24,000 bases of DNA from Streptococcus zhangguiae (GTDB lineage Bacteria; Bacillota; Bacilli; Lactobacillales; Streptococcaceae), in the NCBI RefSeq assembly GCF_017639855.1, contig NZ_CP072115.1, positions 1,150,459 through 1,174,458 of the forward strand. The letters are read 5' to 3'. The stretch's first letter is position 1, and the number at the start of each line of letters is the position of its first letter. The translations under genes were made by a program, and so were the position numbers. The notes under the pieces are model-generated. The model was not told the DNA's origin. It saw only the letters and a list, made by a program, of their open reading frames with translations, and did not search any database. Below are positions 2,332 through 18,346 of this stretch, one piece after another.

Positions 2332-2349
2332 AGATTCCTCCCTTTTATT

Positions 2350-2363: not shown

Positions 2364-2408
2364 ACTAGTTGTTGCTTATTATTTTAACGGATAACAGATT
2401 GGAATTCC

Positions 2409-2440: not shown

Positions 2441-2450
2441 TCATATAAAC

Positions 2451-2478
2451 TAGACTATTTTTGATTTTTCGTTATACT
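2451..2478 (+). promoter_or_regulatory. Candidate sigma-A promoter of AraC-aga unit (TAGACT-16 nt-TATACT)
   Basis: The -10 TATACT (2473-2478) ends 7 nt before ATG 2486, and no purine-rich SD lies between them. The predicted TSS therefore falls at or next to the start codon. Confidence 0.35.
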
Positions 2479-2485
2479 AAAATGT

Positions 2486-3334
2486 ATGGAACATTATTTA
2501 AGACAATATACAGATAGATTTACCGATTTCAATAATAAACATATTTCAGACCTCATTTTGTATAGTAGCGGCATTGAATACTGTCGCCCTAATCATTCCT
2601 ACAGTTTACGAAGCCGTGACTATCACGTCATACTCTTTGTTAAAGAGGGCAAGGGAACTTTTGAAATTGAAGAGAAGCACTACATTATCCAGCAAAACCA
2701 ACTCTTTATCATTCCTGCCGGCTACTGGTTTCGCTATACTGCTGATACAGACAATCCATGGAAATATTCCTGGATAGGATTTTTAGGAATCAAGTCTAAT
2801 TTTATCTACCAAGCCTCGAAACAACATCAGTTTGTCTTTGATTGCAAAAATGCGGAAGATTATGAAGCCCTCATCAATCAAATGCTTGATGTCTCTGAGA
2901 ATACTTTCAGCTCCTTCTTAAAAATCAATGGCTTCATGTATACTTTACTAGGAAAATTAGTCGAAGAAATTGGAATTCTGGATCAAGTTTCTGAACAGCA
3001 AGTCTCAACCCTTGCACGACACTACATGGATTTACATTACCATGAAATTGTTCAAATTGCAGATGTAGCTGACTTTATAGGGATCCATCCCAATTATCTG
3101 GCTCATCTCTTTAAAAAAGAAACAGGAATTTCTCCCAAGCAATATCTTTCTACACTCAGAATAAAAAAAGCCAAAGAATTGCTCATCGAGACATCGTATC
3201 CCATCAATACGATTGCACATTCCGTTGGTTTTTCGGATGCGCTCTCCTTCTCAAAATTCTTTAAAAAAGAAACCGCAATCGCACCAACCACCTATCGAAA
3301 GGAATACAAACATGACGTTATCCATCACATTTGA
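2486..3334 (+). CDS. AraC/XylS-family transcriptional regulator (MsmR/RafR-like)
   Basis: 282 aa. The N-terminal half is cupin-like; the C-terminal half carries the double HTH (IADVADFIGIHPNYLAHLFKKETGISPKQYLSTLRIKKAKELL...TIAHSVGFSDALSFSKFFKKETAIAPTTYR). The 3' end overlaps the aga start by 23 nt. Confidence 0.87.
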   Translation: MEHYLRQYTDRFTDFNNKHISDLILYSSGIEYCRPNHSYSLRSRDYHVILFVKEGKGTFEIEEKHYIIQQNQLFIIPAGYWFRYTADTDNPWKYSWIGFLGIKSNFIYQASKQHQFVFDCKNAEDYEALINQMLDVSENTFSSFLKINGFMYTLLGKLVEEIGILDQVSEQQVSTLARHYMDLHYHEIVQIADVADFIGIHPNYLAHLFKKETGISPKQYLSTLRIKKAKELLIETSYPINTIAHSVGFSDALSFSKFFKKETAIAPTTYRKEYKHDVIHHI

Positions 3335-5504
3335 TTCTACTACGAACTACTTCCATCTGACCAATCAATCAATCAGCTACATCATTGAACTACTGGACAA
3401 TCGTTACCTCATTCATCGCTATTGGGGAAAATCCGTTAGGAACTATTCCGGAGCCAACCGACTTCCCAGCTACAAAAAAACCTTTGCTAGTTTCCAATCC
3501 TTGGAGCAAGATAATCAATCTTTTGAATTTCTTCCCCAAGAATGTCCTCTATCTTTTATGGGAGATTATAAAGAAGCGGGATTAAAACTCCGTTTAGCTG
3601 ACCAATCCGAAATGCTTCGACCTATCTTTCATTCCTATAACATTTTTAACGGAGTTCCAAATCTACCAGATTTACCTCATGCAAGAGCAACCATTGATGA
3701 AGCAAAAACACTTGTCTTAACATTAATCGACTCAACTTCACGGGTACAACTAGACCTTTTCTACTCTATTTTTAAAGATAATAATACCATCATCCGTTCT
3801 AGCAAACTGACAAATCTATCTAGCGATGAGTTTGAAATTCAACACTTTGCTAGTGCCACAATCGATACTCTCTATCAAGGTCAACAACTCACTAGCTTCT
3901 ATGGTTCTCATCAGAAAGAGTTCCAATTGCAACATACTTCAATTACTCATGGACAATTTCGAATTGGAAGCAGTCGAGGAGCTAGTGGCCCACAATATCC
4001 ACCATTTATCGCAATCTCTGATTTAGCACATGAATGTTATGGAGAAGTGCGGGCACTGACTTTAATTTATAGCGGTAATCACACTGAATTGATTGAAAGA
4101 GACCAGTACGATCAATTACGACTTCAAATTGGATTAAATCCAGAGATGTTTTCTTGGAAACTTGGTCCAAAAGAATGTTTTTCAACACCTCAAGCCGTTC
4201 TTGTATACAGTGATGCTGGATTTAACGGTATGTCACATCAATTCCATCATTTTACTCGCCATCATTTACTCCCGTCTCAGTTCAAAAACGAAATAGCTCC
4301 TATTTTGATCAATAGTTGGGAGATGACCTACTTTGATGTCAATGAAGAACAAATGTTACAGGTCATTGAACAAGCACATCAACTTGGCTTTGAAGCTGTT
4401 GTGCTAGATGACGGCTGGTTTAGTGGACGTAACTCTAGCAAAACTTCACTCGGAGATTGGCATGTTGATCCAATAAAATTCCCAAACGATCTCACGCCTC
4501 TGGTAAATTCCTGCCAACAGAAAGGTATGAAATTTGGTATTTGGTTTGAACCTGAAATGATTTCTGCACAGAGCCAATTATGTAAAGAAAAACCCGAATG
4601 GATTGTTAAATCACCTTATTTTCCAGCCTACTATGGCCGAAATCAATATGTCCTTGATTTAACACAAAAAGAGGTACAAGACTGGCTCATTCAAACATTG
4701 AGCACGTTTATCGAGACCTATCATGTTGATTATATTAAATGGGACATGAACCGACATTTGGTTGAAAATGAAAGTCAACTTGCTCACTTCCTACCAAAAG
4801 AGTTTTCTCATCGTTATATGCTTGGTTTATACCGTGTATTAAATTACCTTACACAACAATTTCCTAACTTGCTCTTTGAAAATTGTTCCAGTGGTGGCGG
4901 ACGGCTAGACTTTGGGATGTTGTATTATTTCCCACAAACTTGGCTTAGCGATAACACCGACGGACTCGATCGTCAAGCTATTCAATATGGAGCTAGTTAT
5001 CTCTTTCATCCCTATCAGTTAACTGGCCACGTCTCAGCAGTCCCAAATCATCAAACCAACCGCACTACACCATTACAAACACGCATGGATTTAGCAGATT
5101 CGACCAATATGGGTTATGAACTCAATATCTTGAAAACCTCACTAGAGGATAATCACGTCATTGCACACCATATTAACCGATACAAATCATTACGTCAGCT
5201 GATCCAAACCAGTCGATTTTACCGTTTACTGTCTCCTTTTGATCATAATGCGACTGCTTGGCTATTTGAAAGCGAAGATAAAGAAAACTACTACCTCGTC
5301 GCATTTCGAAATACTTACTCTGTATCTCAAACAGGATATTTATTACGAATTCCATACCTAGACGACAATGCATATTACATCACCTCCAACGGAGAATCTT
5401 ACACCGGTAGTGACTTAAAAAATGCGGGACTCTTTATATCATTTGAAAAAGGTGATTATCAGTCCTATACTCTTTATCTAAAAAAGAAACGAGAAAACCA
5501 CTAA
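3312..5504 (+). CDS. aga: GH36 alpha-galactosidase
   Basis: I trimmed track ORF 3213-5504 to ATG 3312, which has an AAGGA SD 8 nt upstream; the upstream extension lies inside the AraC gene. 730 aa. GH36 motifs are present: YIKWDMNR (nucleophile Asp) and CSSGGGR...WLSDNTDGLDR. Confidence 0.92.
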   Translation: MTLSITFDSTTNYFHLTNQSISYIIELLDNRYLIHRYWGKSVRNYSGANRLPSYKKTFASFQSLEQDNQSFEFLPQECPLSFMGDYKEAGLKLRLADQSEMLRPIFHSYNIFNGVPNLPDLPHARATIDEAKTLVLTLIDSTSRVQLDLFYSIFKDNNTIIRSSKLTNLSSDEFEIQHFASATIDTLYQGQQLTSFYGSHQKEFQLQHTSITHGQFRIGSSRGASGPQYPPFIAISDLAHECYGEVRALTLIYSGNHTELIERDQYDQLRLQIGLNPEMFSWKLGPKECFSTPQAVLVYSDAGFNGMSHQFHHFTRHHLLPSQFKNEIAPILINSWEMTYFDVNEEQMLQVIEQAHQLGFEAVVLDDGWFSGRNSSKTSLGDWHVDPIKFPNDLTPLVNSCQQKGMKFGIWFEPEMISAQSQLCKEKPEWIVKSPYFPAYYGRNQYVLDLTQKEVQDWLIQTLSTFIETYHVDYIKWDMNRHLVENESQLAHFLPKEFSHRYMLGLYRVLNYLTQQFPNLLFENCSSGGGRLDFGMLYYFPQTWLSDNTDGLDRQAIQYGASYLFHPYQLTGHVSAVPNHQTNRTTPLQTRMDLADSTNMGYELNILKTSLEDNHVIAHHINRYKSLRQLIQTSRFYRLLSPFDHNATAWLFESEDKENYYLVAFRNTYSVSQTGYLLRIPYLDDNAYYITSNGESYTGSDLKNAGLFISFEKGDYQSYTLYLKKKRENH

Positions 5505-6945: not shown

Positions 6946-7036
6946 TTCCTAATCTCCTTGATTCCTAACTGCTCTCTATTTTACATTATTTAGGCTGTAA
7001 TAGCTAGTATGTTGGATTTTTCATTGCTATTTTATT

Positions 7037-7092
7037 CAAAAAATACCTAAAAGGTTTTTCTACTGATTCCAGCATGCCAACCTCTTAGGTAT
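7037..7092 (-). terminator. Intrinsic terminator ending the PTS-peptidase operon
   Basis: The minus strand reads ATACCTAAGAGGTT...AACCTTTTAGGTAT followed by TTTTTT. The outer 8-bp arms are perfect (7043-7050 with 7085-7092), with inner AGGTT/AACCT pairing. It begins 11 nt after the PatB-like stop. Confidence 0.6.
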
Positions 7093-7102
7093 CAATAAAT
7101 GC

Positions 7103-8299
7103 TTATTTTTCCAAAGACCGTTTTTTATAGTTTAGATAGGTCTTTTTAATCCGTTCGAGTACGGTGAGCCAGGTATCTCTTGGTAAGCCGACACAGATTC
7201 GAACAAAGCCTTCTCCATCTTGTACAAAGTAACTTCCAGGTACCATCGTCAAATTTGCCTCCTTGAAAAATGCTGTCATTTCCTCCTCATTATGAAAGAG
7301 TTGATGAACATCAATCCAAGCTAGAAAGGATGATTCTGCCGGCATAATAATAGCCTCCGGAATATCCTCAAAACAGTGATGAAGTAAGTTCATATTTTCT
7401 TTGATGTAAGCTGTCCATTCATCGAGCCAAGCCTCACAGTGAGTATAGGCTGCAATAATTGCTGGTACAGCAAAAACATGGGGAGAAGTAATGGAATTTG
7501 CCTCTAACTGTTGATAAAATATCTGACGCAAAATAGGATTCTTAATGACAACGTAAGAAGTTTTTAAACCGCCCAAGTTAAATGCTTTGTTAGGCGATAA
7601 ACAAAGAATACACTGATCCATAATTTTAGGATGCGCATTCGCAATGGTTGTAAAGCTCTCAACTTCAAATAAAATATCCCGATGAATCTCATCGCAAACT
7701 AGAAGAACTTGATAAGTCAAACAAAGCTCTGCTAGGCGATTCAATTCATCCTTTGTCCACACGCGCCCTGAAGGATTTTGAGGACTGCATAAAATATATA
7801 TCTTTACATCGTTTGTCCGAAATTGGTATTCAATATCCTCAAAATCAATATAATAGCGATTCTCACGATTAATCAAGGAACTGGTTAGCAGTGTCCGGCC
7901 ATTATGAAGGACCGCCTCTGCAAAGGGAGCATAGGCAGGAGTATTGATAAGTATCGCTTCTTTTTCTTTACTAAAAGCTTGAACAATATAGTGCAATGTC
8001 GAAACTGTGCCAAATGTTAACTTAATCCACTCTTTTTCAATAACCTGTTGGAAACGACGCTTATTCCAATCGATTACAGCATCATAAAATTCATCTGGAA
8101 CAAAGGTATAGCTATAATCGGGAACCATTGCTCGCTTTACTAAAGCCTCTCTAATTGGTTCTGCAACAGCAACATCGACATCGGCTAAATCCAAGGGAAT
8201 AGCTCCTTCTCCCAAACCAAACTTAGTAGCAATTAGTTGAGGATTCCATTTCCTTGAATGTCCTAAGCGACGATCTATTTTGATATTAAAATCATACAC
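7103..8299 (-). CDS. PLP-dependent C-S lyase / aminotransferase class I-II (PatB/MalY-like cystathionine beta-lyase)
   Basis: 398 aa. The N-terminus MYDFNIKIDRRLGHSRKW is typical of MalY/PatB. The PLP-lysine motif is SPNKAFNLGGLK. The start is GTG at 8299, 4 nt after the stop of the upstream gene. Confidence 0.85.
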   Translation of the reverse strand: MYDFNIKIDRRLGHSRKWNPQLIATKFGLGEGAIPLDLADVDVAVAEPIREALVKRAMVPDYSYTFVPDEFYDAVIDWNKRRFQQVIEKEWIKLTFGTVSTLHYIVQAFSKEKEAILINTPAYAPFAEAVLHNGRTLLTSSLINRENRYYIDFEDIEYQFRTNDVKIYILCSPQNPSGRVWTKDELNRLAELCLTYQVLLVCDEIHRDILFEVESFTTIANAHPKIMDQCILCLSPNKAFNLGGLKTSYVVIKNPILRQIFYQQLEANSITSPHVFAVPAIIAAYTHCEAWLDEWTAYIKENMNLLHHCFEDIPEAIIMPAESSFLAWIDVHQLFHNEEEMTAFFKEANLTMVPGSYFVQDGEGFVRICVGLPRDTWLTVLERIKKTYLNYKKRSLEK

Positions 8300-8303
8300 T
8301 TTT

Positions 8304-9362
8304 TTACCCTACTTCTATTAATTCTTTATTGGAAAGGGTCAAACGCTTCCCAACTCCTTCTTGAACTGCGACAACATCTTCGATACGAACACCACCAAAC
8401 TCAGGGATATAGATTCCAGGCTCACAGGTCATGACCATCCCTTCTTCGAGTATCATAGAGCTAGTTGGACTGAGTATGGGTAAATCGCCACCCAAGCCAA
8501 TACCATGACCCAATCCATGAACAAAGTAATCCCCATATCCTGCTTCTTCAATCACTTCTCGAGCTACTTTATCAATAGCCCTTCCCTGTAATCCTGCAAC
8601 CACTACCGAAACAGCTTGAGTTTGTGCCTGTAAAACAGTTTGGTAGATTTCCTTTTGCTGCCGACTAAGAAGACCAACTGCAACTGTCCGCGTCATATCG
8701 GATTGATAATGGTCTAAAATAACCCCAAAATCAATCGTTAGTAATTCCCCTCTTTCAATGCGTTTATTAGTTGGACGACCATGAGGATAGGCTCCACGAA
8801 CACCTGAAGCGATAATCGGTTCAAAAGCCATAGCACTTGCACCACTTTTCAATGCTTGATAATGAATCAATCCACTCAACTCTAATTCTGTCATTCCAAC
8901 TCTAATTTGAGGTAGGATATGAGAATAGATATCATCTGTTAATTGGCAAGCTGCTTGGATTTTCAAAAATTCTTCTGGAGTTTTTACAGAACGAATTCGT
9001 TCAAGCTCATCATGCAACAGATAGACAGTAAATGTTCGAACTAAACAGTTATATTCCTGAATTGATAAGCCATTCGATTCAATCCCAACTCTCTGAACAT
9101 TTTCTTTCATCAAAAAAGCGATGATTTCATCTATATACTTCCCTTTTACGACCTCTTTTTGCTGATAGTCCTTATCTGTCTGCTCGATAATTTCTTGTTG
9201 ATAACGTCCGTCAAAAAATTGAAAAACAGCTGATTTTGTTAGAACAAGATAAACACCACTTCCTTTTAATGAATGTAGATAGAGTTTATTTGGAACAGAT
9301 TTGATAATAAGGGCATCTAAATCCTTTTCTTCCAGTAATCGGAAGACTTTTTCAACTACCAC
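8304..9362 (-). CDS. M24B-family metallopeptidase (Xaa-Pro amino/dipeptidase-like, PepP/PepQ/YpdF-like)
   Basis: 352 aa. The pita-bread metal ligands are recognisable: DFG...SDMTRT, HGLGHGIG, CEPGIY and VRIED. The start is GTG, with an AAGGAG SD 6 nt upstream. Confidence 0.85.
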   Translation of the reverse strand: MVVEKVFRLLEEKDLDALIIKSVPNKLYLHSLKGSGVYLVLTKSAVFQFFDGRYQQEIIEQTDKDYQQKEVVKGKYIDEIIAFLMKENVQRVGIESNGLSIQEYNCLVRTFTVYLLHDELERIRSVKTPEEFLKIQAACQLTDDIYSHILPQIRVGMTELELSGLIHYQALKSGASAMAFEPIIASGVRGAYPHGRPTNKRIERGELLTIDFGVILDHYQSDMTRTVAVGLLSRQQKEIYQTVLQAQTQAVSVVVAGLQGRAIDKVAREVIEEAGYGDYFVHGLGHGIGLGGDLPILSPTSSMILEEGMVMTCEPGIYIPEFGGVRIEDVVAVQEGVGKRLTLSNKELIEVG

Positions 9363-9373
9363 TTCTCTCTCCT

Positions 9374-10699
9374 TTAAAAGTCTAAGCCTAATTCATCTAA
9401 AATATCGGTATCAGCTGCAGTAAAGATATCTTTTTGGCTCTCTGCCTTCTTTTCTGCCTCTAATTCCTGTTTTTCCATGATTTTAAAGAAAGGCCAATAT
9501 AAAGCAACTGTCAAAACCAATTGGATTGCATTGGCCACAATTGACCGCCAATCTCCATTAGTTAAAAATCCTTCTAGGAAAACACCAACATAAGGTGGAT
9601 CAAAGATTGGCTTATCTACCAAGCCCCAATGCATCATAAACATCGGTAATGTTCCGATAATAGCTCCACCAAATACATGTGGAATAAACATGACTGGATT
9701 CAAAATAATTGGTGCTCCAAATAAGATCGGTTCATTAATTCCAAATAAAGCTGGGAATAGTGATACTTTTCCGATTTGACGATAGCGTTGACTTTTAGAT
9801 AGCATACAAGCGATGACACAACCAATTGAAATACCGCAACCTGTAAAACCAAAGAAAGCACTAGAAGCTCCAGCAGTATAGAAGTGAGGCAAGGGTTGAC
9901 CTGCTTGATAAGCAGCAATATTTTCTGCAATAAAAACCACCATGATTGGTCGCGTAATCGGACTAAAAACAGAGGAATGGATCCCAAAGAAGAAGATGGT
10001 ACAAATACAGAAGTTAAGAGCCAAAACAGACCAAGGATTATCCATCGATCCCACTAATGGTTGAAGGAAGCGAGTCAAAATGGTAGGAGGAAGCTCTCCT
10101 ATTGTTGACAATAAAACAAAACGTGTCAAGATAAATGTTCCACCGACAATCAAAGTAACTGGAATTAACTCAAAAGAACGGGATACAAAGTCAGGAACAC
10201 CATCTGGCATTCGAATGGTCAAGTTTCTCTTCTTACAGAACTGATAGAGTTCCACCGTTACTAAAGAAGCGATCATAGAAGTAAATAACCCCTTGGCGCC
10301 TAAATTAGACAGACTGACGCCTCCATCTTCTGTAAATTGGACTGTCAGAAATAAGAAGGCAAAAACAGCTTGTGTCACAGCTCCTGGAATATATAATTTG
10401 TAATAATTTGCTAAATTAAATGAAATCGCCATACAAGAATATAAGCCAATGAGCCCAATGGATAAGGTAACTGGAAGATCAAATAATTCTGCATTCTGCA
10501 AAATAAATTTACTAACAATATTATTTTCCCCTAACATATTAGGCAAGGCTGGTAAAATAGCAAAGAAACTTCCTAAAATGGTAAAAGGAGTCATGGCAAC
10601 CATTCCCGCCTTAATGGCACTTAAATGCCGTTGATTATCTACCTTTCGTGCTAAGGGTAGAAAAAAACGATTCATAAATGCTTCAAATTTTTCGAACAT
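9374..10699 (-). CDS. PTS lactose/cellobiose-family EIIC permease
   Basis: 441 aa, polytopic. It has the typical EIIC type-3 N-terminus (FMNRFFLPLARKVDNQRHLSAIKAGMVAMTPFTILGSFF) and a charged C-terminal tail. ATG start with a GGAAAGGA SD. Confidence 0.9.
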   Translation of the reverse strand: MFEKFEAFMNRFFLPLARKVDNQRHLSAIKAGMVAMTPFTILGSFFAILPALPNMLGENNIVSKFILQNAELFDLPVTLSIGLIGLYSCMAISFNLANYYKLYIPGAVTQAVFAFLFLTVQFTEDGGVSLSNLGAKGLFTSMIASLVTVELYQFCKKRNLTIRMPDGVPDFVSRSFELIPVTLIVGGTFILTRFVLLSTIGELPPTILTRFLQPLVGSMDNPWSVLALNFCICTIFFFGIHSSVFSPITRPIMVVFIAENIAAYQAGQPLPHFYTAGASSAFFGFTGCGISIGCVIACMLSKSQRYRQIGKVSLFPALFGINEPILFGAPIILNPVMFIPHVFGGAIIGTLPMFMMHWGLVDKPIFDPPYVGVFLEGFLTNGDWRSIVANAIQLVLTVALYWPFFKIMEKQELEAEKKAESQKDIFTAADTDILDELGLDF

Positions 10700-10720
10700 A
10701 GTTCTTGTCCTTTCCTTCTT

Positions 10721-11053
10721 TTATGACTTTAATACATGTTTTCGATGTGTCACTAAAGCCAATTTGAGAACAGTTGCTCCGTCCATTTGTCCATAGACAT
10801 CCTTATCAATCACAGCATAGGGAATTCCCTTCGGTTCAAGGACTGATTGGATATAATCTACCTTATGAGCAATTTGAGGACCAACTAATACAATATCCCA
10901 CCCATCAATTTCTTGTTCTAAAGCATCTGCTGGAATTGCAGTAAAATCAAATTCTTCGTCTTTTAAAACTTCACTTTTTTGTACAACTTTCCGCATATTT
11001 TGCATTAACATGTTGGTAGAAAAACCACCAGCACAACAGAGTAAAATTTTCAT
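10721..11053 (-). CDS. PTS lactose/cellobiose-family EIIB
   Basis: 110 aa. MKILLCCAGGFSTNMLMQNM carries the active-site Cys loop of EIIB type 3. Confidence 0.9.
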   Translation of the reverse strand: MKILLCCAGGFSTNMLMQNMRKVVQKSEVLKDEEFDFTAIPADALEQEIDGWDIVLVGPQIAHKVDYIQSVLEPKGIPYAVIDKDVYGQMDGATVLKLALVTHRKHVLKS

Positions 11054-11071
11054 CTTTCTTCTCCCTTTTAT

Positions 11072-11368
11072 TTATTCATAAAGAGCAATCATCGCTTCAA
11101 TCAAATCCCTAGCCAGTTGACTTGTCATATAATGGTCTTGCGCATGGACCATCAATAACGTGACCTTTGTATCCTCCTCTCCCATCAACGCTTTACTGAT
11201 TAGATTGGTTTGAAGATTATGTGCTTCTAAATCTAGTTGTCTAGATTCTTTAATCAATTCCTTTGCTCTTGCAATATCCCTTTGTTTCAAACATTTCAGG
11301 GCTTCGAAAGCTTTTGCTTTGCTATCGCCTGAAATTGCAATCATTTTAACAATATCCATTTCTTCCAT
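11072..11368 (-). CDS. PTS lactose/cellobiose-family EIIA
   Basis: 98 aa, helical. It has the conserved His motif LLMVHAQDHYMTS of EIIA type 3. AGGAG SD 8 nt upstream. Confidence 0.87.
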   Translation of the reverse strand: MEEMDIVKMIAISGDSKAKAFEALKCLKQRDIARAKELIKESRQLDLEAHNLQTNLISKALMGEEDTKVTLLMVHAQDHYMTSQLARDLIEAMIALYE

Positions 11369-11379
11369 CTGAATTTCTC

Positions 11380-12423
11380 CTATTTAAATGCCCTAAATTG
11401 CTCACAATACTCTGCTGAACACTCCAGAATGAGAGCCTGATGCAAGTCTATCATTTGAGTGATATCTCCCTCATTTACTAAAGAATAAGGGCAATGACCA
11501 TGCCGAACAGGTACAATGGTGACAACTGTCGGTTTTCCTTCGTGAACGAGATGAGCCTGTCCACCATCAGTTCCTCCAGATGAAAACATATCTAACTGAA
11601 GAGGAAGGCCGTACTGTTTGGCTATATTTTTTACATATTGTACCATCGGCAAATTCGGCGCTAACGTACGGTCAAAATGTGTTAGAATAGGGCCCTTCCC
11701 AACCTGTCTCTGATTGAGGTGATTTCTCGTTGTAGAATCGCTATAAGTAGCTACATCAATGACAAAGACACTGTCTGGATTAATTAGTTGTGTAGCAGTT
11801 TTTGCTCCTCTAATCCCAACTTCTTCACTGCTAGTAAAGGCAAAATGAACTGTAAGAGGAAGATCTTGATTGGCTAAATTCTTCATTAACTGTCCCATGA
11901 TATAGCAGGCTAATCGATTATCTAGTGCTTTTCCCATATACATAGACTGGGGTGCTAAGCGTTCAAACTGACTATCAAAGCAGACCATATTACCGACTTC
12001 AATACCTAAGTCTGTCACTTCTTGATAAGATGAAGCACCAATGTCACAAATTAGCTCTTCCGTCATTCCGTTTTGATAGCGACCCGAAATGAAACCTAAA
12101 ATTTTTTCTCCATTGAAAGTTGTAATCCGTACTCTCTGAAAATGTTGCGCTAAGGGTTTGACCCCACCAACGACCATCAGGTAAATGAGACCATTCTCAC
12201 TGACACTACGTACCATAAAACCAACTTCATCTAAATGTCCACAAATCATGATACTCTTACTTGTATCACGGCCTTGCTTCGTAAAAATCAGGCTTCCTAA
12301 GCCATCGTATTGTTTCGAAAAAGGAAGTGCCCCCAATTCATCTAGTAAGACCTGTCTAACTTCTTGTTCATTACTTGCAATACCGTCTGCATTTGATAAG
12401 GCTGCCAAAAATTCTATACTCAT
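11380..12423 (-). CDS. M42-family metallo-aminopeptidase (FrvX/YpdE/CelM-like)
   Basis: 347 aa. M42 ligand motifs are present: GHLDEVGFMV, ALDNRLACY, SSEEVGIRGA, VIDVA and PVRHGHCP. The ATG lies 1 nt after the regulator's stop (TAG-T-ATG). Confidence 0.87.
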   Translation of the reverse strand: MSIEFLAALSNADGIASNEQEVRQVLLDELGALPFSKQYDGLGSLIFTKQGRDTSKSIMICGHLDEVGFMVRSVSENGLIYLMVVGGVKPLAQHFQRVRITTFNGEKILGFISGRYQNGMTEELICDIGASSYQEVTDLGIEVGNMVCFDSQFERLAPQSMYMGKALDNRLACYIMGQLMKNLANQDLPLTVHFAFTSSEEVGIRGAKTATQLINPDSVFVIDVATYSDSTTRNHLNQRQVGKGPILTHFDRTLAPNLPMVQYVKNIAKQYGLPLQLDMFSSGGTDGGQAHLVHEGKPTVVTIVPVRHGHCPYSLVNEGDITQMIDLHQALILECSAEYCEQFRAFK

Positions 12424-12424
12424 A

Positions 12425-14254
12425 CTATTTTCCTTCTAATATATTCTTTAATTGGTAACGAAATTCATGATATGTTTCTGTCTTGCTCAAAGATTCAATC
12501 CCTAGTGGATTTTCCATTACCTTGCTGAGCACCTTCGAAATAATTTGATGTTTTTCAACCTCTCCTTCTTTCAGCGATACCATAAAAATGATTTTTGGAT
12601 AGATTCCTTCTGTCTTTACACCCTTTGGCAATAGGCAGACCGAGATGATATTCTTCTGTCCCTTCATCTCCATTGGGTGAGGGATTGCAATGCCATTGGC
12701 ATAAATTGTCGATAAGTAATCCTCTCTTTCCAATACCGAATGTTGGTAACCCAATTGCTGATTATAAACTTCTAATTCAGCTGCTAAATCCGATAAAATG
12801 GTGCGATAGTCTTCTTTCCCTTTAATGCTAAAGAAATCACTAGACAACCATTCAAGAAATAAGTCTTCCATAGAACTAGACCGCGAACCCCGAAAAGATT
12901 CAAGGTAACCCGCCATTGACATAGCATCTATATTTTCTTGAATTTCATCCAAATGAAGAATTGGACAAGATAGGGCTAAATTCAAATCAGTCATTGAAAA
13001 AACCAAATCCGGTTGAAACTCTTGGATTGCTTGATTTTCCAATAGTGAAAATGTCTGAATCAACGCATTTTGGAAGATACGCCTTAGTTTCAAGTGAATT
13101 AACTGAGCTATTCCTCCTCCAGAAGAACAAACAACTGCAATGCGGTAGCGTTGCTCTAAACGTTTTTGCTTACTTTTCTGATAGGGAACTAACATATGGG
13201 TAGCTAAATAAGCTATCTCATCAGAGGAAATTTGAATGTGGTACTCCTCCTCCAACCACCGAGAAAATTTCAAGGCTTCGTTGTAAATAACAGGATAATG
13301 TTTACTAATATGACTGGCATAGGGATTGATACTAACAATCCGCTTTCTTGCTCGTTCAATCAAAGCAGCAATATGTAAGCAAACGAGATTTAAAAACTCA
13401 TAATCACTCGAAAATTCTGTACGATTGATTCGATCAATTGCTTGAAAATATTCGCTGATTTTCTTTTTTAGAGATAGTGGACGTGTATCAACTTTCTGCT
13501 TGGTCCGAATCGATAAACTATTCTCGAGAAACTCCGATTTTTCTTTAGAAAAGAGTGCTTTCAATATATTCAAATCCTTCTGTAAAGCACCATTTAATGC
13601 TTCTATCGTAACAGTCTGATTCATTAATTCCATACAGATAAGAAATAGCAACTCTTGCTTTACTGTTTGAATTTCAGCTACATCAGGAATATAAGAGCAA
13701 GTCTGAAACCAGTCAAATAAAATGGTCTGTAACATAACTTGTTGTTCTTGCGCCACATATTCTACGATAAACCTATTACACGATTCATGATGTAGGAGCC
13801 AAGCTATTTTTTCTGCTAATGAAGCACAGATACGAATACCATAATGTGCCTTTCTTTCTAACACCAATCCTTGATTTAACAGTTCTACTTCTATCTGCTG
13901 AAGATCTTTTTTAATTTGGCTACTGCTACTTAATACCATATCTGCCAATGATTGAATAGTCATATAGTCCGAGGAAATCAATAATAAAAAGCATAATTTA
14001 TTTTTCCTCATCGCCTGACTATCCATTACATCAAAAGATAACGTTGCAAAATAGTCCTCAAATCTTTTTTTATCAGCAATGACAAGACGGTAACCTAGTG
14101 GATATTTTTCAATCACAAATCCAGATTTCATCTCATTTAGTAACTTAATATCATTTTGAATCGTACGCCGAGAAACTTTATACAAATTGGCCAAAGTTTG
14201 TTCTGGAGTATACTCGTTATTCAATATAGTAGATAAAACTAAGTCACTTCTCAT
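12425..14254 (-). CDS. PRD-containing PTS-controlled transcriptional activator (MtlR/LicR type: HTH - PRDs - EIIB-like - EIIA-like)
   Basis: 609 aa. The N-terminal HTH is YKVSRRTIQNDIKLLNE, followed by central PRD-like helices. The EIIB(Gat)-like loop is RIAVVCSSGGGIAQL, and the C-terminal EIIA(Mtl/Fru)-like domain contains ANGIAIPHP. Strong AGGAGG SD. Confidence 0.85.
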   Translation of the reverse strand: MRSDLVLSTILNNEYTPEQTLANLYKVSRRTIQNDIKLLNEMKSGFVIEKYPLGYRLVIADKKRFEDYFATLSFDVMDSQAMRKNKLCFLLLISSDYMTIQSLADMVLSSSSQIKKDLQQIEVELLNQGLVLERKAHYGIRICASLAEKIAWLLHHESCNRFIVEYVAQEQQVMLQTILFDWFQTCSYIPDVAEIQTVKQELLFLICMELMNQTVTIEALNGALQKDLNILKALFSKEKSEFLENSLSIRTKQKVDTRPLSLKKKISEYFQAIDRINRTEFSSDYEFLNLVCLHIAALIERARKRIVSINPYASHISKHYPVIYNEALKFSRWLEEEYHIQISSDEIAYLATHMLVPYQKSKQKRLEQRYRIAVVCSSGGGIAQLIHLKLRRIFQNALIQTFSLLENQAIQEFQPDLVFSMTDLNLALSCPILHLDEIQENIDAMSMAGYLESFRGSRSSSMEDLFLEWLSSDFFSIKGKEDYRTILSDLAAELEVYNQQLGYQHSVLEREDYLSTIYANGIAIPHPMEMKGQKNIISVCLLPKGVKTEGIYPKIIFMVSLKEGEVEKHQIISKVLSKVMENPLGIESLSKTETYHEFRYQLKNILEGK

Positions 14255-14263
14255 ACACCCCTC

Positions 14264-14277
14264 CTAAAACGTTTTCA
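14264..14277. promoter_or_regulatory. Weak cre-like palindrome overlapping the regulator SD
   Basis: CTAAAACGTTTTCA matches the cre consensus at 12/14 positions, with a perfect AAAACGTTTT core. It lies between a minus-strand TATAAT (14290-14295) and the AGGAGG SD. Confidence 0.3.
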
Positions 14278-14437
14278 TTTTGTACTACTATTATATACTG
14301 ATTAGCTAGAATACAAAAGATGAATATTTTCCTTTTTAATTTGAAAAAAGTAACTGATTCTTCCCCCTAAGCTCCTAAACAAGACCGTCTATTGTCTACA
14401 AACTTGACAAATTCACCCATCCTTTTTATTTCAATGG

Positions 14438-15018
14438 TTCGGGAAAAAACAATCCTACTAAAGCCTTACTCGCTCTTTTCTTGACAAGCTCGTGAAAGAA
14501 CAGCCCACTGGACCCTACCTCGCTCTATAATTTCTAGGCGCGGGAAAAAACGGTCCACTTCAACTAACCTCGCTCTGCTATTTCTGGGCGAGGGAAAAAC
14601 AGTCCGCTGGACCTTAACTCGCTTTCTCGTTTCTCGGCTCGTGAAAAAACAATCCACCTTTCTAACCACGCTTTTCTATTTGACAAGCGCGGGAAAAACA
14701 GCCCGCTGGACCTTAACTCGCTTTCTCATTTCTCGGCTCGTGAAAAAACAATCCCCTTGCTAACCACGCTTTTCCATTTGACAAGCGCGGGAGAAACAGC
14801 CCACTGGACCTTAACTCGCTTTCTCGTTTCTCGGCTCGTGAAAAAACAATCCACCTTTCTAACCACGCTTTTCTATTTGACAAGCGCGGGAAAAACAGCC
14901 CGCTGGACCTTAACTCGCTTTCTCGTTTCTCGGCTCGTGAAAAAACAATCCCCTTGCTAACCACGCTTTTCCGTTTGACAAGCGCGGGAAAAACAGCCCA
15001 CTGGGCTGTTTTTTATGC
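14438..15018. repeat. Nested tandem repeat array, 12 units of ~49 bp (array 1)
   Basis: Unit starts are about 14438, 14489, 14539, 14589, 14638, 14688, 14737, 14786, 14835, 14885, 14934 and 14983. Two subtypes alternate, giving a 98-99-bp period: A (CGCGGGAAAAACAGCCCRCTGGACCTTAACTCGCTTTCTCRTTTCTCGG) and B (CTCGTGAAAAAACAATCC..CTAACCACGCTTTTC..TTTGACAAG). The 4-unit block 14638-14834 is repeated from 14835 with only 3 substitutions. Confidence 0.9.
14989..15014. terminator. Terminator-like perfect hairpin closing the array
   Basis: The sequence is AAAAACAGCCC-ACT-GGGCTGTTTTTT: a 6-bp GC-rich stem flanked by an A-run and a T-run, so it is symmetric and potentially bidirectional. Confidence 0.6.
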
Positions 15019-15024
15019 TATACT
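15016..15024 (+). promoter_or_regulatory. Extended -10 (TGCTATACT) for the HAD-pepT unit
   Basis: A TGnTATACT motif lies 28 nt upstream of ATG 15053. The GAGGAGG SD is at 15041-15047. Confidence 0.4.
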
Positions 15025-15052
15025 AGTCTATAGAATACTTGAGGAGGTGTGT

Positions 15053-15868
15053 ATGATTAAATTACTAGCTCTTGATATGGATGGGACCTTGTTGAATAGT
15101 CAGAAACAACTGACCCAACCACAGATTGAGGCGATTCATAAAGCGATTGAAATGGGGGTTAAGCTCGTACTGTGTACTGGCAGAATGCTCCCAGGGGTCA
15201 AGCCTTATTTTGACCAACTAGGACTGGATGCGGAAAATGAATATGTCATTGTCAATAATGGCTGCTCCACTCATCAAACGAGTGACTGGAAACTGATTGA
15301 CTGGGCGGAACTATCTCCTGATGAAATTCGGTATCTAGCAACCTTTATTCCAGAAAGTGAGATGCAGCTGACCTTATTTGACGAGGAGCATTATTATGTC
15401 TTAGAAGATGAACCAAATGAACATTCACGGACAGATGCTCATCTTGTTTTTGTAGAGCCAACGATTTTAAGCATGGAGAACGCAACAAACCAGAGCCGTC
15501 ATCTTTTCCAAGCCATGTATGTCGGAACAAAAGAGGCCACTGATGCCTTTGAAAGCAACTATGCTGACCTACTCCGTAAAGACTTCGATGCCGTACGCTC
15601 ACAAGATGTCCTGCTTGAAATTTTGCCAACAGGTACCAATAAGGCTTCTGCTCTCAAAAAATTGGCAGAACACTTGGGAATCTTACCCGAAGAAATTATG
15701 GCGATGGGTGATGCCAATAATGACATTGAAATGCTGGAATTTGCTGGTCTAAGTATTGCAATGGGGAATGCTAGCGAGCTTGTCCAATCGTTGGCAGATG
15801 ATGTCACCGATAGCAATGATTGCGACGGCGTTGCTAAAGCCATTTACAAACATATTTTACAGCAGTAG
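15053..15868 (+). CDS. Cof-type HAD-IIB sugar phosphatase
   Basis: I trimmed track ORF 14954-15868 to ATG 15053, which has a GAGGAGG SD; the upstream part is read-through of the repeat array. HAD motifs are present: [10 protein letters not shown] (DxDGT), CTGR and [10 protein letters not shown]. 271 aa. Confidence 0.87.
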
Positions 15869-15890
15869 AAAATACCAAAAGGAGAAAATC

Positions 15891-17111
15891 ATGAAATACC
15901 CTACACTTTTAGAACGATTCCTTGTCTATGTAAAAGAAAATACACGCTCTGACGAGACGTCCACTACCACACCAAGTACCCAAAACCAAGTTGAGTTTGC
16001 CCAAAACATTCTGCTTCCTGAAATGGAACGCATCGGACTTCAAAATGTCCACTATCTGCCGAATGGATTTGCCGTAGGAACACTTCCTGCCAATGCCCCT
16101 ACTTTGACACGTAAGATTGGCTTTATCGCCCATATGGATACGGCAGACTTTAATGCCGAAGGTGTCAATCCGCAGATTATTGAAAACTATGACGGAAATC
16201 CGATTGCCCTTGGGACATCTGGTTTTGAATTGCATCCAAAAGATTTTCCGCAATTAAACAACTATCACGGGCAAACCTTGATTACAACAGACGGAACTAC
16301 CTTGCTTGGTTCTGACGATAAATCAGGAATTGCTGAGATTATGACAGCCATTGAATACTTGGTCGCTCATCCTGAAATCAAACACTGCGAAATCCGTGTT
16401 GGATTCGGTCCAGATGAAGAAATCGGTGTGGGAGCAGATAAATTTGATGTGGAAGATTTTGATGTTGATTTTGCCTATACAATGGACGGCGGTCCACTTG
16501 GCGAACTCCAATACGAAACTTTTAGCGCTGCTGGTGCTAAGATTGATTTCCTTGGACGAAATGTTCACCCTGGGTCTGCTAAAGATCAAATGATCAATGC
16601 CTTCCAACTAGCAATTGACTTCCATAATGCTCTCCCAGAAGCAGATCGCCCAGAAAAAACAGATGGGTATCAAGGGTTCTTCCATTTGATGGACATGTCA
16701 GGAAGCGTTGATCAAGCACAAACAACATACATCATTCGTGATTTTGAAGAAGCTGATTTTGAAGCCCGCAAACAGTTGATGCTGGATATTGCTGAGAAGA
16801 TGAATCAAGCATTCGATACTCCTCGTGTTATCGTTCATTTGCATGACCAATACTATAACATGAAGAAAATCATCGAAAAGGATATGACCCCCATTACCAT
16901 TGCTAAAGAAGTCATGGAAAATCTTGGCATCACACCAATCATTGAGCCAGTTCGTGGTGGAACTGACGGATCAAAAATTTCCTTCATGGGTATTCCAACA
17001 CCAAATATCTTTGCAGGTGGTGAGAATATGCATGGCCGCTTTGAATTTGTCAGCCTTGAAACCATGGAAAAAGCTGTCGATGTCATTCTAGGAATTGTGG
17101 GACACCAATAA
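15891..17111 (+). CDS. pepT: Peptidase T (tripeptide aminopeptidase, M20B)
   Basis: I trimmed track ORF 15756-17111 to ATG 15891, which has an AAGGAG SD 6 nt upstream. 406 aa. It has the [23 protein letters not shown]-terminus and the HMDTADF and [12 protein letters not shown] motifs. Confidence 0.92.
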
Positions 17112-17127
17112 AAGCCTTATCAGATAA

Positions 17128-17192
17128 GCGCCCTTACTCGTTATTGAAGATGAACACCAATTGATCTTTCAATGCTTCTAGGGCGTTTTTTT
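17128..17192 (+). terminator. Intrinsic terminator after pepT
   Basis: GCGCCCT (17128-17134) pairs with AGGGCG (17180-17185), with inner TTGAAGAT/ATCTTTCAA pairing, followed by TTTTTTT. Confidence 0.55.
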
Positions 17193-17282
17193 CCCACCGC
17201 AACCAACAGTAGCAAGATGTAAACTGAGCTTTCTTGGCAAAAATCCTTGTATTTGCTACAGTAAGGATAGGAGGTGACCTAT

Positions 17283-17921
17283 ATGTTACTACATGAAAAA
17301 ATTCGTTTCATTCGCACCATTCATCAATTATCACAGGAACAATTCGCTGAAGAATTTCTGGTCAGTCGCCAATCAGTTTCCAAGTGGGAAAATGGCACTG
17401 CTATTCCTGATCTGCACATTCTCATCAAGATAGCTGATTTTGCCGATATGAGTTTGGACCAACTTGTCCGTGATGACATTGATCTACCAATCCAGCAAGA
17501 CCAACATCATCCTGAACCAGAGATTGAACCACAGCGGAATGCAAGTTTTGCTATTCAAGACTATCTGGGAAAGGTTTGCGATGTTTCCCTTAATACGATG
17601 TGGTACCAAGTTCTGCGAAATGTCAAAATCGTTGGGATCTATCAAAATATGGTCTGCTTTGAAAAACGGCAACGCTACGGCTACTTTCATCTCGATCGCT
17701 GTATCGATATTCTGGTCAAAAAAGAAGAGGAGTATATTCCCTACAATCAGATTGCTTTGGGAAAATGTAAAGCCTACACGAATACCAACCAATTCTGGGG
17801 TGGAAATCACTATCTCTTCAGCCAAGTAACTGCCGTCAATGAAAGAGGAATTGAACTCCAAACGGGACAATTTACATCCTTTATTGATTTCCAGCATTTA
17901 GTAGTTCTCCTAATGAAATAG
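17283..17921 (+). CDS. XRE-family HTH regulator with uncharacterised ~140-aa C-terminal domain
   Basis: The N-terminus is LHEKIRFIRTIHQLSQEQFAEEFLVSRQSVSKWENGTAIPDLHILIKIADFADMSLDQLV, an HTH_3/Cro-C1 domain. I prefer ATG 17283 (AGGAGG SD 8 nt upstream) over the track's GTG 17274. I did not recognise the C-terminal part. Confidence 0.75.
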   Translation: MLLHEKIRFIRTIHQLSQEQFAEEFLVSRQSVSKWENGTAIPDLHILIKIADFADMSLDQLVRDDIDLPIQQDQHHPEPEIEPQRNASFAIQDYLGKVCDVSLNTMWYQVLRNVKIVGIYQNMVCFEKRQRYGYFHLDRCIDILVKKEEEYIPYNQIALGKCKAYTNTNQFWGGNHYLFSQVTAVNERGIELQTGQFTSFIDFQHLVVLLMK

Positions 17922-17925
17922 ACGA

Positions 17926-17951
17926 AACAAGCACTTTTTCAGGTACTTGTT
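17926..17951 (+). repeat. Degenerate copy of the terminator hairpin found at 18238
   Basis: AACAAGCACTTTTTCAGGTACTTGTT matches 18238-18263 at 25/26 positions. The stem has one C/A mismatch, and no T-tract follows. Confidence 0.8.
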
Positions 17952-18237
17952 CAGAACGTAGACAAAACCGAGATTTATTTAAACAAATTCAAAAGCTCTA
18001 CTAACTGAACATTTGATTTTCCGATTTTCGCGAGCAAAGCGAGCCACATCAGATACTTTTCGCTGTGGTAAAAGTAGGGAATGGGACTCAATTGTGATTT
18101 TGTTTAAATCGATTATCCTCGCTCCTTTGTTTCTGGGCTCGGGCTAAAATAATCCACTGGATTATTTTACTCCGCAGGAAGTCGCTACCGTCCACACCAC
18201 CTAAAAAAAGTATCTCAAAAAAACTTTTTCTTCAATC
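17952..18237. repeat. 286-bp intergenic insert carrying modules of the same dispersed repeat family (MITE/BOX-like)
   Basis: Three parts resemble other repeats in the window. 17955-18015 resembles 5549-5603 (AACGTAG...AAAA..GATTT...AAAAG...AACT.GAACATT). 18118-18175 aligns with array-1 units (CCTCGCTC..TTTCTGGGC..G..AAAA.A.TCCRCTGGA) and forms the hairpin AAAATAATCCACTGGATTATTTT. 18009-18037 looks like an inverted unit (its reverse complement reads GGCTCGCTTTGCTCGCGAAAATCGGAAAA). Confidence 0.6.
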
Positions 18238-18267
18238 AACAAGCACTTTTTCAGGTGCTTGTTTTTA
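18238..18267 (+). terminator. Intrinsic terminator (intact copy)
   Basis: ACAAGCAC-TTTTTCAG-GTGCTTGT is a perfect 8-bp stem followed by TTTTT. Confidence 0.7.
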
Positions 18268-18268
18268 T

Positions 18269-18346
18269 TATATAAAAAATTTATATATTACTCTTGACTT
18301 CCTTTGGCAATATGTATATAATTTATATATAAAATTTTTATATATA
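18269..18346. promoter_or_regulatory. Pair of 19-bp palindromes TATATAAA-N3-TTTATATA bracketing the padR promoter; candidate PadR operators
   Basis: Site 1 is 18269-18287, TATATAAA-AAA-TTTATATA. Site 2 is 18324-18346, a perfect palindrome with 11-bp arms (TATATATAAAA-T-TTTTATATATA) containing the same 19-bp core at 18326-18344. A third, 15-bp palindrome lies at 18315-18329. Confidence 0.35.
18294..18322 (+). promoter_or_regulatory. Sigma-A promoter of the PadR triad
   Basis: TTGACT (18294-18299), an exact 17-nt spacer, then TATAAT (18317-18322). It lies 38 nt upstream of ATG 18361. Confidence 0.6.

Follow-up and report, generated by a model that had tools for sequence, protein, structure and literature searches.

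How does a bacterium obtain usable sugar through a phosphotransferase system (PTS) operon that encodes two metallopeptidases and a C-S lyase and no glycosidase? The question is raised by seven minus-strand genes in a 24,000 nt stretch of the Streptococcus zhangguiae genome (RefSeq assembly GCF_017639855.1, contig NZ_CP072115.1, positions 1,150,459 to 1,174,458 of the forward strand; referred to below as the window, with coordinates counted from its first letter). In order of transcription, these genes encode a PRD-type activator, an M42 aminopeptidase, EIIA, EIIB and EIIC of the lactose/cellobiose (Lac) family, an M24B metallopeptidase and a PatB/MalY-family lyase that is dependent on pyridoxal phosphate (PLP). 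PTS operons are some of the most thoroughly understood nutrient systems of bacteria. Yet, to our knowledge, no explanation has been offered, since annotation of the Escherichia coli genome, for the link of PTS genes to M42/M24B peptidases (the fry, frv and sgc loci of E. coli) and to MalY-type lyases.

All three partners are combined here in one tight operon. It was found in no fewer than 80 species of Firmicutes and Coriobacteriia from gut, oral, food and environmental sources, and its upkeep in so many species argues that the PTS-peptidase-lyase association is under selection. Sequence comparison indicates that the cassette is a real, conserved orphan pathway. We give a little less than an even chance to the reading that it is a self-regulated, catabolite-repressible operon for a carbohydrate bearing an amino acid or peptide, from which the sugar would be released by the lyase. 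There is a credible chance that it will reveal a PTS substrate class and a deglycosylation chemistry that are both new, and that it will explain the orphan PTS-peptidase operons of E. coli.

Composition and distribution of the cassette

Orthologous loci were retrieved with one genome per species and were anchored on the EIIC alignment alone, which gave 80 loci from Lactobacillales, Clostridia, Erysipelotrichia and Coriobacteriia (two phyla). Searching with the seven window proteins (tblastn) placed the genes in the order regulator, M42, EIIA, EIIB, EIIC, M24, PatB in essentially all loci, with median intergenic gaps of 0–22 nt; the exceptions to a full cassette were contig ends and two loci (L008 and L061 in our numbering) without M24. 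Among the loci retrieved through EIIC, M42 and PatB were essentially always present and M24 was present in all but two, a co-occurrence beyond chance. The same seven genes stand between unrelated flanks in Romboutsia ilealis-like and Clostridium baratii-like genomes and in Erysipelothrix larvae, and flanks vary by lineage throughout (679 flanking open reading frames (ORFs) fell into 402 clusters). The cassette is judged to be widely conserved, mobile and glycosidase-free.

Two clades were distinguished. Clade 1 (49 loci; EIIC 61–95 % identical to that of the window) carries no extra gene and includes Streptococcus cuniculi, the Enterococcus avium/raffinosus group, Granulicatella, Abiotrophia, Romboutsia and Peptacetobacter, as well as some Clostridioides difficile, Clostridium tertium, C. 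baratii, a C. perfringens strain and Lacticaseibacillus zeae. Clade 2 (33 loci; EIIC 47–59 % identical to that of the window) comprises Faecalibacillus, Coprobacillus, Dubosiella and other Erysipelotrichaceae, some Lactobacillaceae, and the Coriobacteriia Olsenella, Lancefieldella and Collinsella, and it carries an additional gene for an RDD-family membrane protein. The M42, M24 and PTS proteins are 40–55 % identical between the clades. The eighth gene of clade 2 (L055-L086; for example 13637–14317 in L077 and 11379–12041 in L069) encodes a protein of approximately 200–230 aa and lies downstream of the lyase gene, or between the EIIC and M24 genes in three Lactobacillaceae (L069, L076 and L084). 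A role as a further membrane component of the uptake machinery is conceivable. In some Lactobacillaceae cassettes this extra gene had been suspected of encoding a glycosidase, which was dismissed once the product was recognised as the RDD-family protein.

The cassette has already been drawn in print, without explanation, around malY of Lactobacillus sakei LT-13, where the malY cluster (LACBS_00568-00576) is an 8-kb strain-specific insertion (Kato & Oikawa 2018, PMC5845896). The order in Figure 1 of that paper is PRD proteins, aminopeptidase, Lac-family IIA, IIB and IIC, RDD protein, aminopeptidase and MalY, and MalY was treated there as a racemase, with its physiological role left open (PMC5845896). 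This cluster is the same cassette, with a lyase that is a PLP enzyme possessing beta-lyase activity; it differs from the window cassette in being of the clade-2 form, with the RDD gene between the IIC and M24 genes.

Several minor observations were made on the loci themselves. M24B is absent from Streptococcus cuniculi WM131 and Granulicatella balaenopterae (L008 and L061), where the lyase gene comes nearly straight after the EIIC gene; it is present in the other strain of S. cuniculi, L007. Locus L075 lies on a contig with the label "Bacteroidaceae bacterium"; its cassette barely differs from the Faecalibacillus one (RDD protein 99 % identical), and the contig is probably a mis-binned Firmicute. 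A plasmid- or phage-borne cassette was sought with the M42 protein in a plasmid collection (tblastn) and rejected: no copy of the cassette was found there, and all M42 matches were below 60 % identity and corresponded to E. coli ypdE/frvX or to unrelated M42 genes.

Predicted enzymes and the absent glycosidase

Every family assignment proposed in the first-pass annotation of the window held in profile searches with Pfam and NCBIfam, although the lyase fell 1 bit short of its subfamily cut-off. EIIC scored 276 against TIGR00410 (cut-off 236), and its PDB match was ChbC (3QNQ), with the GIH and NE motifs of which His241 and Glu323 are aligned; the ChbC residues in these motifs are presumably the catalytic His250 and Glu334 at the sugar 6-OH site. 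His241 and Glu323 are invariant in 84 sequences, and the phospho-Cys of EIIB (Cys7) is invariant in 83 cassettes. Between genera, EIIC is 70–95 % identical (70–91 % among Streptococcus, Enterococcus, Romboutsia, Clostridium and Erysipelothrix). The cassette EIIC represents a distinct, highly conserved subfamily of the PTS Lac family (TC 4.A.3), and the Lac-type phosphotransfer chain is predicted to be intact.

Canonical Lac/Cel operons, such as licBCAH of Bacillus subtilis, include a phospho-glycosidase. The chbBCARFG operon of E. coli resembles the cassette in its separate Lac-family IIA, IIB and IIC proteins and in the conserved His/Glu pair of EIIC and Cys of EIIB, but it encodes ChbF (GH4), whereas the cassette has two metallopeptidases and a PLP lyase instead. 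No glycoside hydrolase is encoded inside the window operon, and tblastn with E. coli AscB (GH1) and ChbF gave zero matches inside any of 83 cassettes (search space 83 loci, 1.56 Mb). The lack of a phospho-glycosidase, to which the first-pass annotation had drawn attention, is accordingly a property of the whole orthologous group and not a local loss; the counter-case that it had named, in which orthologous loci routinely carry a 6-phospho-beta-glucosidase that happened to be lost here, was rejected with 0 of 83 cassettes encoding GH1 or GH4.

Outside the cassettes, a GH1 or GH4 gene lies within 10 kb in just four of the 83 loci, always in another unit or orientation. Firmicutes carry, at a rough estimate, one GH1/GH4 gene per 300–500 kb, and at this density four loci are no above-chance frequency. 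No glycoside hydrolase recurs among the 679 flanking ORFs. The GH1 genes close to the cassette in L067, L068 and L069 (<4 kb) were considered as possible cassette members and set aside, as they belong to other units or orientations. In L069, a canonical Lac-IIC and GH1 pair stands beside the cassette, evidence that the usual PTS-glycosidase arrangement exists separately from it.

Against the PatB C-S lyase model TIGR04350 (cut-off 340), the window lyase scored 338.9 and the clade-2 lyase 346.8, and in the PDB the window lyase is nearest to cysteine-S-conjugate beta-lyases and to PatB (3T32, 9K71 and 6QP3). Residues K238 (the PLP lysine), Y123 (the stacking residue), N175, D203, H206 and R367 (the arginine for the alpha-carboxylate) are invariant in 83 cassettes of both clades; the cassette lyases are therefore predicted, by residue conservation, to be working PLP enzymes that act on a free alpha-amino acid moiety. 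L. sakei MalY is the one cassette enzyme with partial biochemistry: when purified, it binds PLP and is a beta-lyase on L-cysteine, cystine and cystathionine (L-cysteine: 95 nmol/min/mg, Km 11.5 mM, reported kcat/Km 81 s^-1 mM^-1), its racemase activity is weak and broad (Km ~150 mM for alanine), and its K233 and Y123 are essential (PMC5845896); the latter correspond to K238 and Y123 of the window lyase. Such poor constants suggest that the true substrate was absent from the compounds assayed.

The lyases have diverged far more than the other proteins of the cassette would lead one to expect from their identities of 40–55 %: clade-2 lyases are 23–31 % identical to the window lyase in the tblastn comparison. 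When both clades were compared with 150 library representatives of the window lyase, clade-1 and clade-2 lyases were 30–32 % identical to each other and each was 33–37 % identical to unrelated PatB representatives. The lyase may either have been recruited twice or have diverged very early. That a PatB-family gene nevertheless stands by the M24 gene in both clades argues that the lyase is required and not incidental. Both clades share Tyr249, Ser272 and a basic residue at position 26, which few of 137 generic PatB representatives have; these residues offer a weak lead towards cassette-specific lyase features.

Two annotation details concern the same protein family. The RefSeq representative of the lyase cluster, WP_154608080.1, has 370 aa compared with 398 aa for the ORF; the longer form is shown to be right by a conserved N-terminal motif (R10, W18) and by the alignment to PDB homologues, which begins at residue 4, and the shorter annotation is probably truncated. 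In Faecalibacillus (L074, L075 and L077; ~17165–18334), a second, canonical PatB gene (TIGR04350, 451 bits) lies ~3.5 kb downstream of the cassette lyase gene, so that the cassette lyase is not the sole PatB of the organism.

The M42 protein scored 449.4 bits against the YpdE equivalog model NF007421 (cut-off 412; clade-2 protein 483.7), and its top PDB match was 1YLO, the Shigella YpdE orthologue (288 bits; runner-up 182). It is 44 % identical to E. coli YpdE, 32 % to FrvX and 27 % to SgcX. Its metal ligands (H63, D65, D168, E200, E201, D223 and H310) are kept in 82–83 of 83 cassettes, the exceptions being one D223E substitution and one alignment gap at 63/65. By model score and identity, the window M42 protein is assigned specifically to the YpdE-like type. 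Generic M42 genes (~30 % identity) in Listeria, Enterococcus gallinarum and L. plantarum occur in non-PTS contexts, and the PTS linkage would thus belong to the YpdE-like subfamily.

The M24B protein matched PF00557 (216 bits) and PF01321 (37 bits) and, among PDB entries, Pyrococcus furiosus prolidase 1PV9 (236 bits) and E. coli YpdF 5CNX (202 bits). It is 38 % identical to E. coli YpdF and scored 234 bits against the YpdF equivalog NF007310, under the cut-off of 393; it is similarly close to the archaeal prolidase PepQ model (258 bits), again below the equivalog cut-off. Its five metal ligands (D211, D222, H286, E314 and E328) show no variation among 81 cassettes. Enzymes of the M42 YpdE type have broad specificity and M24B enzymes act at Xaa-Pro bonds; YpdE and YpdF were reportedly characterised in a 2005 paper in J. 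Bacteriol. Judged by their residues, the cassette encodes two intact exopeptidases of complementary types.

In the regulator, Pfam detected HTH_11, HTH_Mga, PRD and PTS_EIIA_2 domains (the last being a C-terminal EIIA domain of Mtl/Fru-like type), and a CSSGGG motif is located at residues 376–381. One PRD was detected, against the two PRDs and the EIIB(Gat)-like domain of typical LicR/MtlR-type activators. Of the activator with PRD, EIIB and EIIA domains that had been described for this gene, the PRD and EIIA parts were recovered; the EIIB-like part was not called by Pfam in the window regulator, and PTS_IIB was seen weakly and in orthologues only (E 0.03–0.05). The protein is assigned to the LicR/MtlR-type PRD activators, with a probable EIIB-like domain, and its domain layout resembles that of LicR. 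In 80 of 83 loci, its gene opens the cassette. FrvR was rejected as a relative, no significant similarity to the window regulator being found.

The four E. coli parallels drawn in the first-pass annotation are borne out by the annotation of strain MG1655, which gives fryB-fryC-ypdF-ypdE-fryA, frvA-frvB-frvX-frvR, the sgc cluster with sgcX, and malX-malY; the cassette does unite the three orphan partners, M42, M24B and MalY-type lyase, in one PTS operon. For loci of this type, no substrate has been assigned in the full-text literature searched, where no published function for the cassette was found either. The cryptic fry locus is similar in that ypdE and ypdF stand side by side in a PTS operon without a glycosidase. 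It differs in its IIA, which is of Fru/Mtl type (PTS_EIIA_2) and fused to HPr and EI domains in FryA, in its IIC, which gave a weak generic PTS_EIIC match (52 bits), whereas the window has separate Lac-family IIA, IIB and IIC proteins, in the absence of a PatB lyase and of a PRD activator from the operon, and in its gene order. In malX-malY, a PatB/MalY-family gene directly follows a PTS permease gene, and MalY is 30 % identical to the window lyase, but MalX is a Glc-family IIBC, peptidases are absent and the role of MalY is regulatory there. By its sequence relationships, the cassette is best described as a YpdE/YpdF-type pair placed on a Lac-family PTS together with a PatB lyase.

Proposed pathway and competing explanations

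The proposed route would begin with import of the conjugate by the Lac-family EIIABC and phosphorylation of a sugar hydroxyl, a step suggested by family membership and conserved catalytic residues. The M42 and M24B enzymes would then trim the peptide from its N-terminus and could jointly remove any residue, including those before proline, to leave an amino acid that bears the phosphorylated sugar and has its alpha-amino and alpha-carboxyl groups free. Beta-elimination by the PatB-type lyase at the bond between C-beta and the heteroatom would convert an O-glycosyl-serine or -threonine into sugar-6-phosphate, pyruvate or 2-oxobutyrate, and ammonia, and an S-glycosyl-cysteine into a 1-thio-sugar phosphate. 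With the lyase cleaving the bond between sugar and amino acid, a glycosidase would not be needed. By analogy with the LicR/MtlR family, the PRD activator with its EIIA- and EIIB-like domains would turn on the operon upon transport of the substrate.

Among the candidate substrates, O- or S-linked glycosyl-serine, -threonine or -cysteine appears to suit the enzyme set best. O-linked glycosyl-serine and -threonine are abundant in host and dietary glycoproteins. The S-linked form fits better with regard to mechanism, being closer to known C-S chemistry, but it is rare and would yield a thio-sugar. A PatB-type enzyme would probably not resolve N-linked N-acetylglucosamine (GlcNAc)-asparagine, and Amadori compounds are least favoured, no deglycase, kinase or oxidase being present in any cassette. 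In its most specific form, in which a 6-phosphorylated O- or S-glycopeptide is trimmed by YpdE/YpdF-type enzymes and opened by PatB-type beta-elimination, the glycosidase-free route seems possible to us but doubtful.

Chemical precedent for the lyase step is found in LmbF-type PLP C-S lyases of lincosamide biosynthesis, which cleave the C-beta-S bond of S-glycosyl-L-cysteine after trimming by an amidase; these enzymes differ in being biosynthetic and in having no PTS link. The best functional analogue, by analogy only, is the alf-2 operon of Lactobacillus casei for catabolism of fucosyl-GlcNAc-Asn, which likewise combines a transporter, a peptidase (PepV, the proposed glycopeptide trimmer) and a PLP enzyme (AsdA; PMC6960285). 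In alf-2, however, a major facilitator superfamily permease and a sugar kinase take the place of the PTS, the peptidase is of family M20, the PLP enzyme is a decarboxylase, and the sugar-amino acid bond is cleaved by a fucosidase and a glycosylasparaginase; among the seven operon proteins of the window, no match to the glycosylasparaginase or fucosidase families was found.

A hint as to the sugar comes from about 12 Peptostreptococcaceae loci (Romboutsia, Peptacetobacter, Clostridioides, and a metagenomic Clostridium sp.), in which a module that encodes a PfkB hexose/tagatose-6-phosphate kinase, an isomerase/deaminase of the AgaS family and a tagatose-bisphosphate aldolase lies immediately upstream of the cassette (for example L024 519–5944, L028 2027–5977 and L040 513–5932; internal order differs by genus). 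The module includes a GntR regulator and, in some loci, a NagA deacetylase that is absent from several others. In Romboutsia faecis (L028) it is bordered upstream by unrelated genes and is without its own transporter, and no module transporter was seen within the examined flank of the other Peptostreptococcaceae loci. By its gene content, the module is predicted to be a complete route from (N-acetyl)galactosamine-6-phosphate to triose phosphate, and its adjacency hints weakly that the imported sugar may be a hexosamine. An N-acetylhexosamine (N-acetylgalactosamine-Ser/Thr of mucin, or O-GlcNAc-Ser/Thr) is the only sugar option with contextual support, weak as it is. Recurrent flanking genes were also considered as clues to the substrate and discarded, the neighbours being lineage-specific only; a PepE-like S51 dipeptidase and TruA, for example, are found near the cassette only in the Enterococcus avium group.

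A number of points weigh against lyase-mediated release of sugar from a conjugate. We know of no precedent for a peptide-bearing sugar among the substrates of characterised Lac-family EIIC proteins, which are di- and trisaccharides. S-Glycosyl-cysteine is rare in nature, and cleavage of the S-linked form would give a thio-sugar with no obvious entry into glycolysis. L. sakei MalY was inactive on free L-serine (PMC5845896), so that C-O elimination by this lyase subfamily is a proposal only, although the leaving group of free serine is far worse than that of a glycoside. The hexosamine/tagatose neighbourhood is confined to one bacterial family and could reflect common descent, M24 is missing from two loci and is thus not strictly essential and sometimes lost, and a GH1 gene lies 0.7–4 kb upstream in three of 33 clade-2 loci.

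The alternative that survives best, and which we consider unlikely, is an N-aminoacyl-hexosamine substrate, an amino sugar with an aminoacyl or peptidyl group on its C2 amine, from which the "aminopeptidases" would free hexosamine-6-phosphate by acting as deacylases, PatB only disposing of the amino acid; neither a glycosidase nor a deglycosylating lyase would then be required. It would account for an AgaS-type module that adjoins the cassette in Peptostreptococcaceae with no transporter of its own in the examined flank and, in several loci, no NagA, and it would agree with the activity of L. sakei MalY on free L-cysteine (a cysteine desulfhydrase role) and with the presence of non-peptide amidohydrolases in both peptidase families, M24 and M42 (NCBIfam lists ectoine hydrolase and the NAGGN M42 hydrolase). 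A broad aminopeptidase together with an Xaa-Pro enzyme suggests variable peptides, however, and not one acyl group, and a Km of 11.5 mM for L-cysteine is poor for dedicated cysteine removal. Bacillithiol and mycothiol would still require a glycosidase for the aglycone.

Salvage or detoxification of non-enzymatic adducts, such as Amadori products (suggested in the first-pass annotation), Heyns products or sugar-cysteine thiazolidines acting as proline mimics, seems improbable. E. coli PepP, an Xaa-Pro aminopeptidase of the same family as the M24B protein, cleaves thioproline as well as proline peptides (bioRxiv 10.1101/2020.03.19.981027), which would tie an Xaa-Pro peptidase to a C-S lyase, and AgaS-family SIS proteins are related to GlmS-type deglycases/deaminases. 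An AgaS-family SIS protein adjoins the cassette in Peptostreptococcaceae only, however, and no SIS-type deglycase or fructosamine kinase of the frl, fra or gfr type was found in the window operon or in any cassette; FrlB-type deglycase, FrlD-type kinase and amadoriase were present in 0 of 83. A glycated alpha-amino group would, moreover, block aminopeptidases, and open-chain forms would fit a pyranoside-binding Lac-family EIIC poorly.

Little probability is likewise attached to an ordinary beta-glycoside or disaccharide PTS, with its glycosidase encoded elsewhere and the peptidases and lyase as unrelated or regulatory passengers. The top NCBIfam model for EIIC is indeed the cellobiose IIC TIGR00359 (277 bits, under the cut-off of 434), GH1 genes do occur within 4 kb in L067, L068 and L069, and E. 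coli MalY is annotated as regulatory (it modulates MalT). Against this reading, gene content and order are conserved, with invariant catalytic residues, across two phyla and 80 species whose flanks differ, and neither clade has lost its PatB-family gene, deep as their divergence is. The frequency of nearby GH1/GH4 genes is approximately that of chance by the rough density given above, and the Lac-IIC and GH1 pair beside the cassette in L069 shows the usual arrangement to exist separately.

Scavenging of sulfur or cysteine conjugates, with uptake of a thio-linked sugar-cysteine or cysteinyl-peptide for release of thiol or sulfide or for detoxification rather than for carbon, is hardly to be expected: the nearest structures are cysteine-S-conjugate beta-lyases, a dipeptidase and PatB (6QP3) form a route for Cys-Gly S-conjugates in Staphylococcus, and the cassette lyase of L. 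sakei acts on C-S substrates and not on serine, but a cre-like site and a PRD activator are typical of carbon catabolism, no sulfur-assimilation gene recurs in the flanks, and S-glycosyl-cysteine has no abundant natural source known to us.

If the substrate of the proposed conjugate pathway is a glycopeptide or glyco-amino acid, it would constitute a new class of PTS substrate, and the lyase would provide a new way of detaching sugar from a protein remnant. Carriers such as Enterococcus avium/raffinosus, Granulicatella, Abiotrophia, some C. difficile and C. perfringens, Romboutsia and Erysipelotrichaceae would then include commensals and opportunists that harvest host or dietary glycoproteins by a route that has so far escaped notice. 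The pathway would also suggest a purpose for the orphan fry, frv and sgc operons and give a rational starting point for their study in E. coli.

Operon signals and neighbouring genes

The feature coordinates are collected in Table 1. As had been described, seven minus-strand genes run from 14254 to 7103, and the ORF list gave identical gaps (1, 11, 18, 21, 11 and 4 nt from regulator to lyase). Each start codon is preceded by a purine-rich Shine–Dalgarno (SD) sequence. A terminator placed earlier at 7037–7092 was recovered as a strong hairpin with a U-run (dG −27.8 kcal/mol, z = −4.92; an equally good fold in 0 of 200 shuffles). A single control region upstream of the first gene was likewise recognised, but the extent assigned to it (14255–14300) proved too short, its elements reaching ~14356. 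From this compact layout, with a single promoter region and a single strong terminator, the seven genes are predicted to form one operon.

Table 1. Coordinates of genes and predicted signals in the window, with the cassette first.
Feature	Position	Strand	Remarks
PRD activator	12425–14254	minus	609 aa ORF; first operon gene
YpdE-type M42 aminopeptidase	11380–12423	minus	347 aa ORF
PTS EIIA, lactose/cellobiose family	11072–11368	minus	98 aa; PF02255, E = 3e-26
PTS EIIB, lactose/cellobiose family	10721–11053	minus	110 aa; PF02302
PTS EIIC, lactose/cellobiose family	9374–10699	minus	441 aa; TIGR00410, PF02378
M24B metallopeptidase (prolidase / Xaa-Pro aminopeptidase / YpdF-like)	8304–9362	minus	352 aa; Peptidase_M24 and Creatinase_N
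PatB/MalY-family PLP-dependent C-S (beta-)lyase	7103–8299	minus	398 aa; GTG start
Putative promoter/operator region	14288–14360	minus	from reading of the sequence
Putative -10 box, TATAAT	14290–14295	minus	
Putative weak -35 box, TTGTAT	14311–14316	minus	
T-rich/A-rich element, CAGTTACTTTTTTCAA...AAAAGGAAAAT...CATCTTTTGTAT	upstream of -35, to ~14356	minus	
cre-like site, TGAAAACGTTTTAG	14264–14277	minus	between -10 box and SD
Predicted Rho-independent terminator of operon	~7036–7095	minus	hairpin, then UUUUUU
GH32 sucrose-6-phosphate hydrolase-like gene	991–2331	minus	
AraC regulator	2486–3334	plus	
GH36 alpha-galactosidase	to 5504	plus	

The T-rich/A-rich element is a putative binding site of the PRD activator; with the pattern TTTTTxC...GAAAA...CTTTT, it recurs in front of the regulator gene in loci of Streptococcus, Granulicatella, Abiotrophia, Romboutsia, Erysipelothrix and Lacticaseibacillus. 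The site resembling a catabolite-responsive element (cre) has two mismatches to TGWAANCGNTNWCA, by consensus match only; cre-like sites at similar spacing (23–30 nt 5′ of the start) were found in L007, L043, L009, L031 and L053, and the window site is a probable CcpA operator for catabolite repression. No Rfam family and no tRNA were found anywhere in the window; the lack of an Rfam match argues against a leader of the ribonucleic antiterminator (RAT) type and agrees with an HTH-type activator.

Between the cassette promoter and a divergent HAD gene, the gap is occupied by a 99-bp tandem repeat (14481–15004; 5.3 copies, 87 % matches; alternatively 197 bp × 2.6) with no Rfam match. An ORF at 14954–15868 begins within the repeat, and the database gene call begins at 15053, past it. 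The divergent genes (15053–17111) encode a Cof-type HAD phosphatase and an M20 peptidase; a 49 % identical M20 gene lies just upstream of the cassette in Lacticaseibacillus zeae (L031), and the HAD/M20 pair is not conserved elsewhere.

On the other side of the cassette, a separate sucrose/raffinose cluster (991–5504) extends past the left end of the window, as judged from locus L001, and its PTS EIIBC is encoded just beyond the window. Further to the right, a PadR regulator, a HAAS-domain protein and a DUF4097 "toastrack" protein are encoded at 18361–20109 by genes that overlap or abut.

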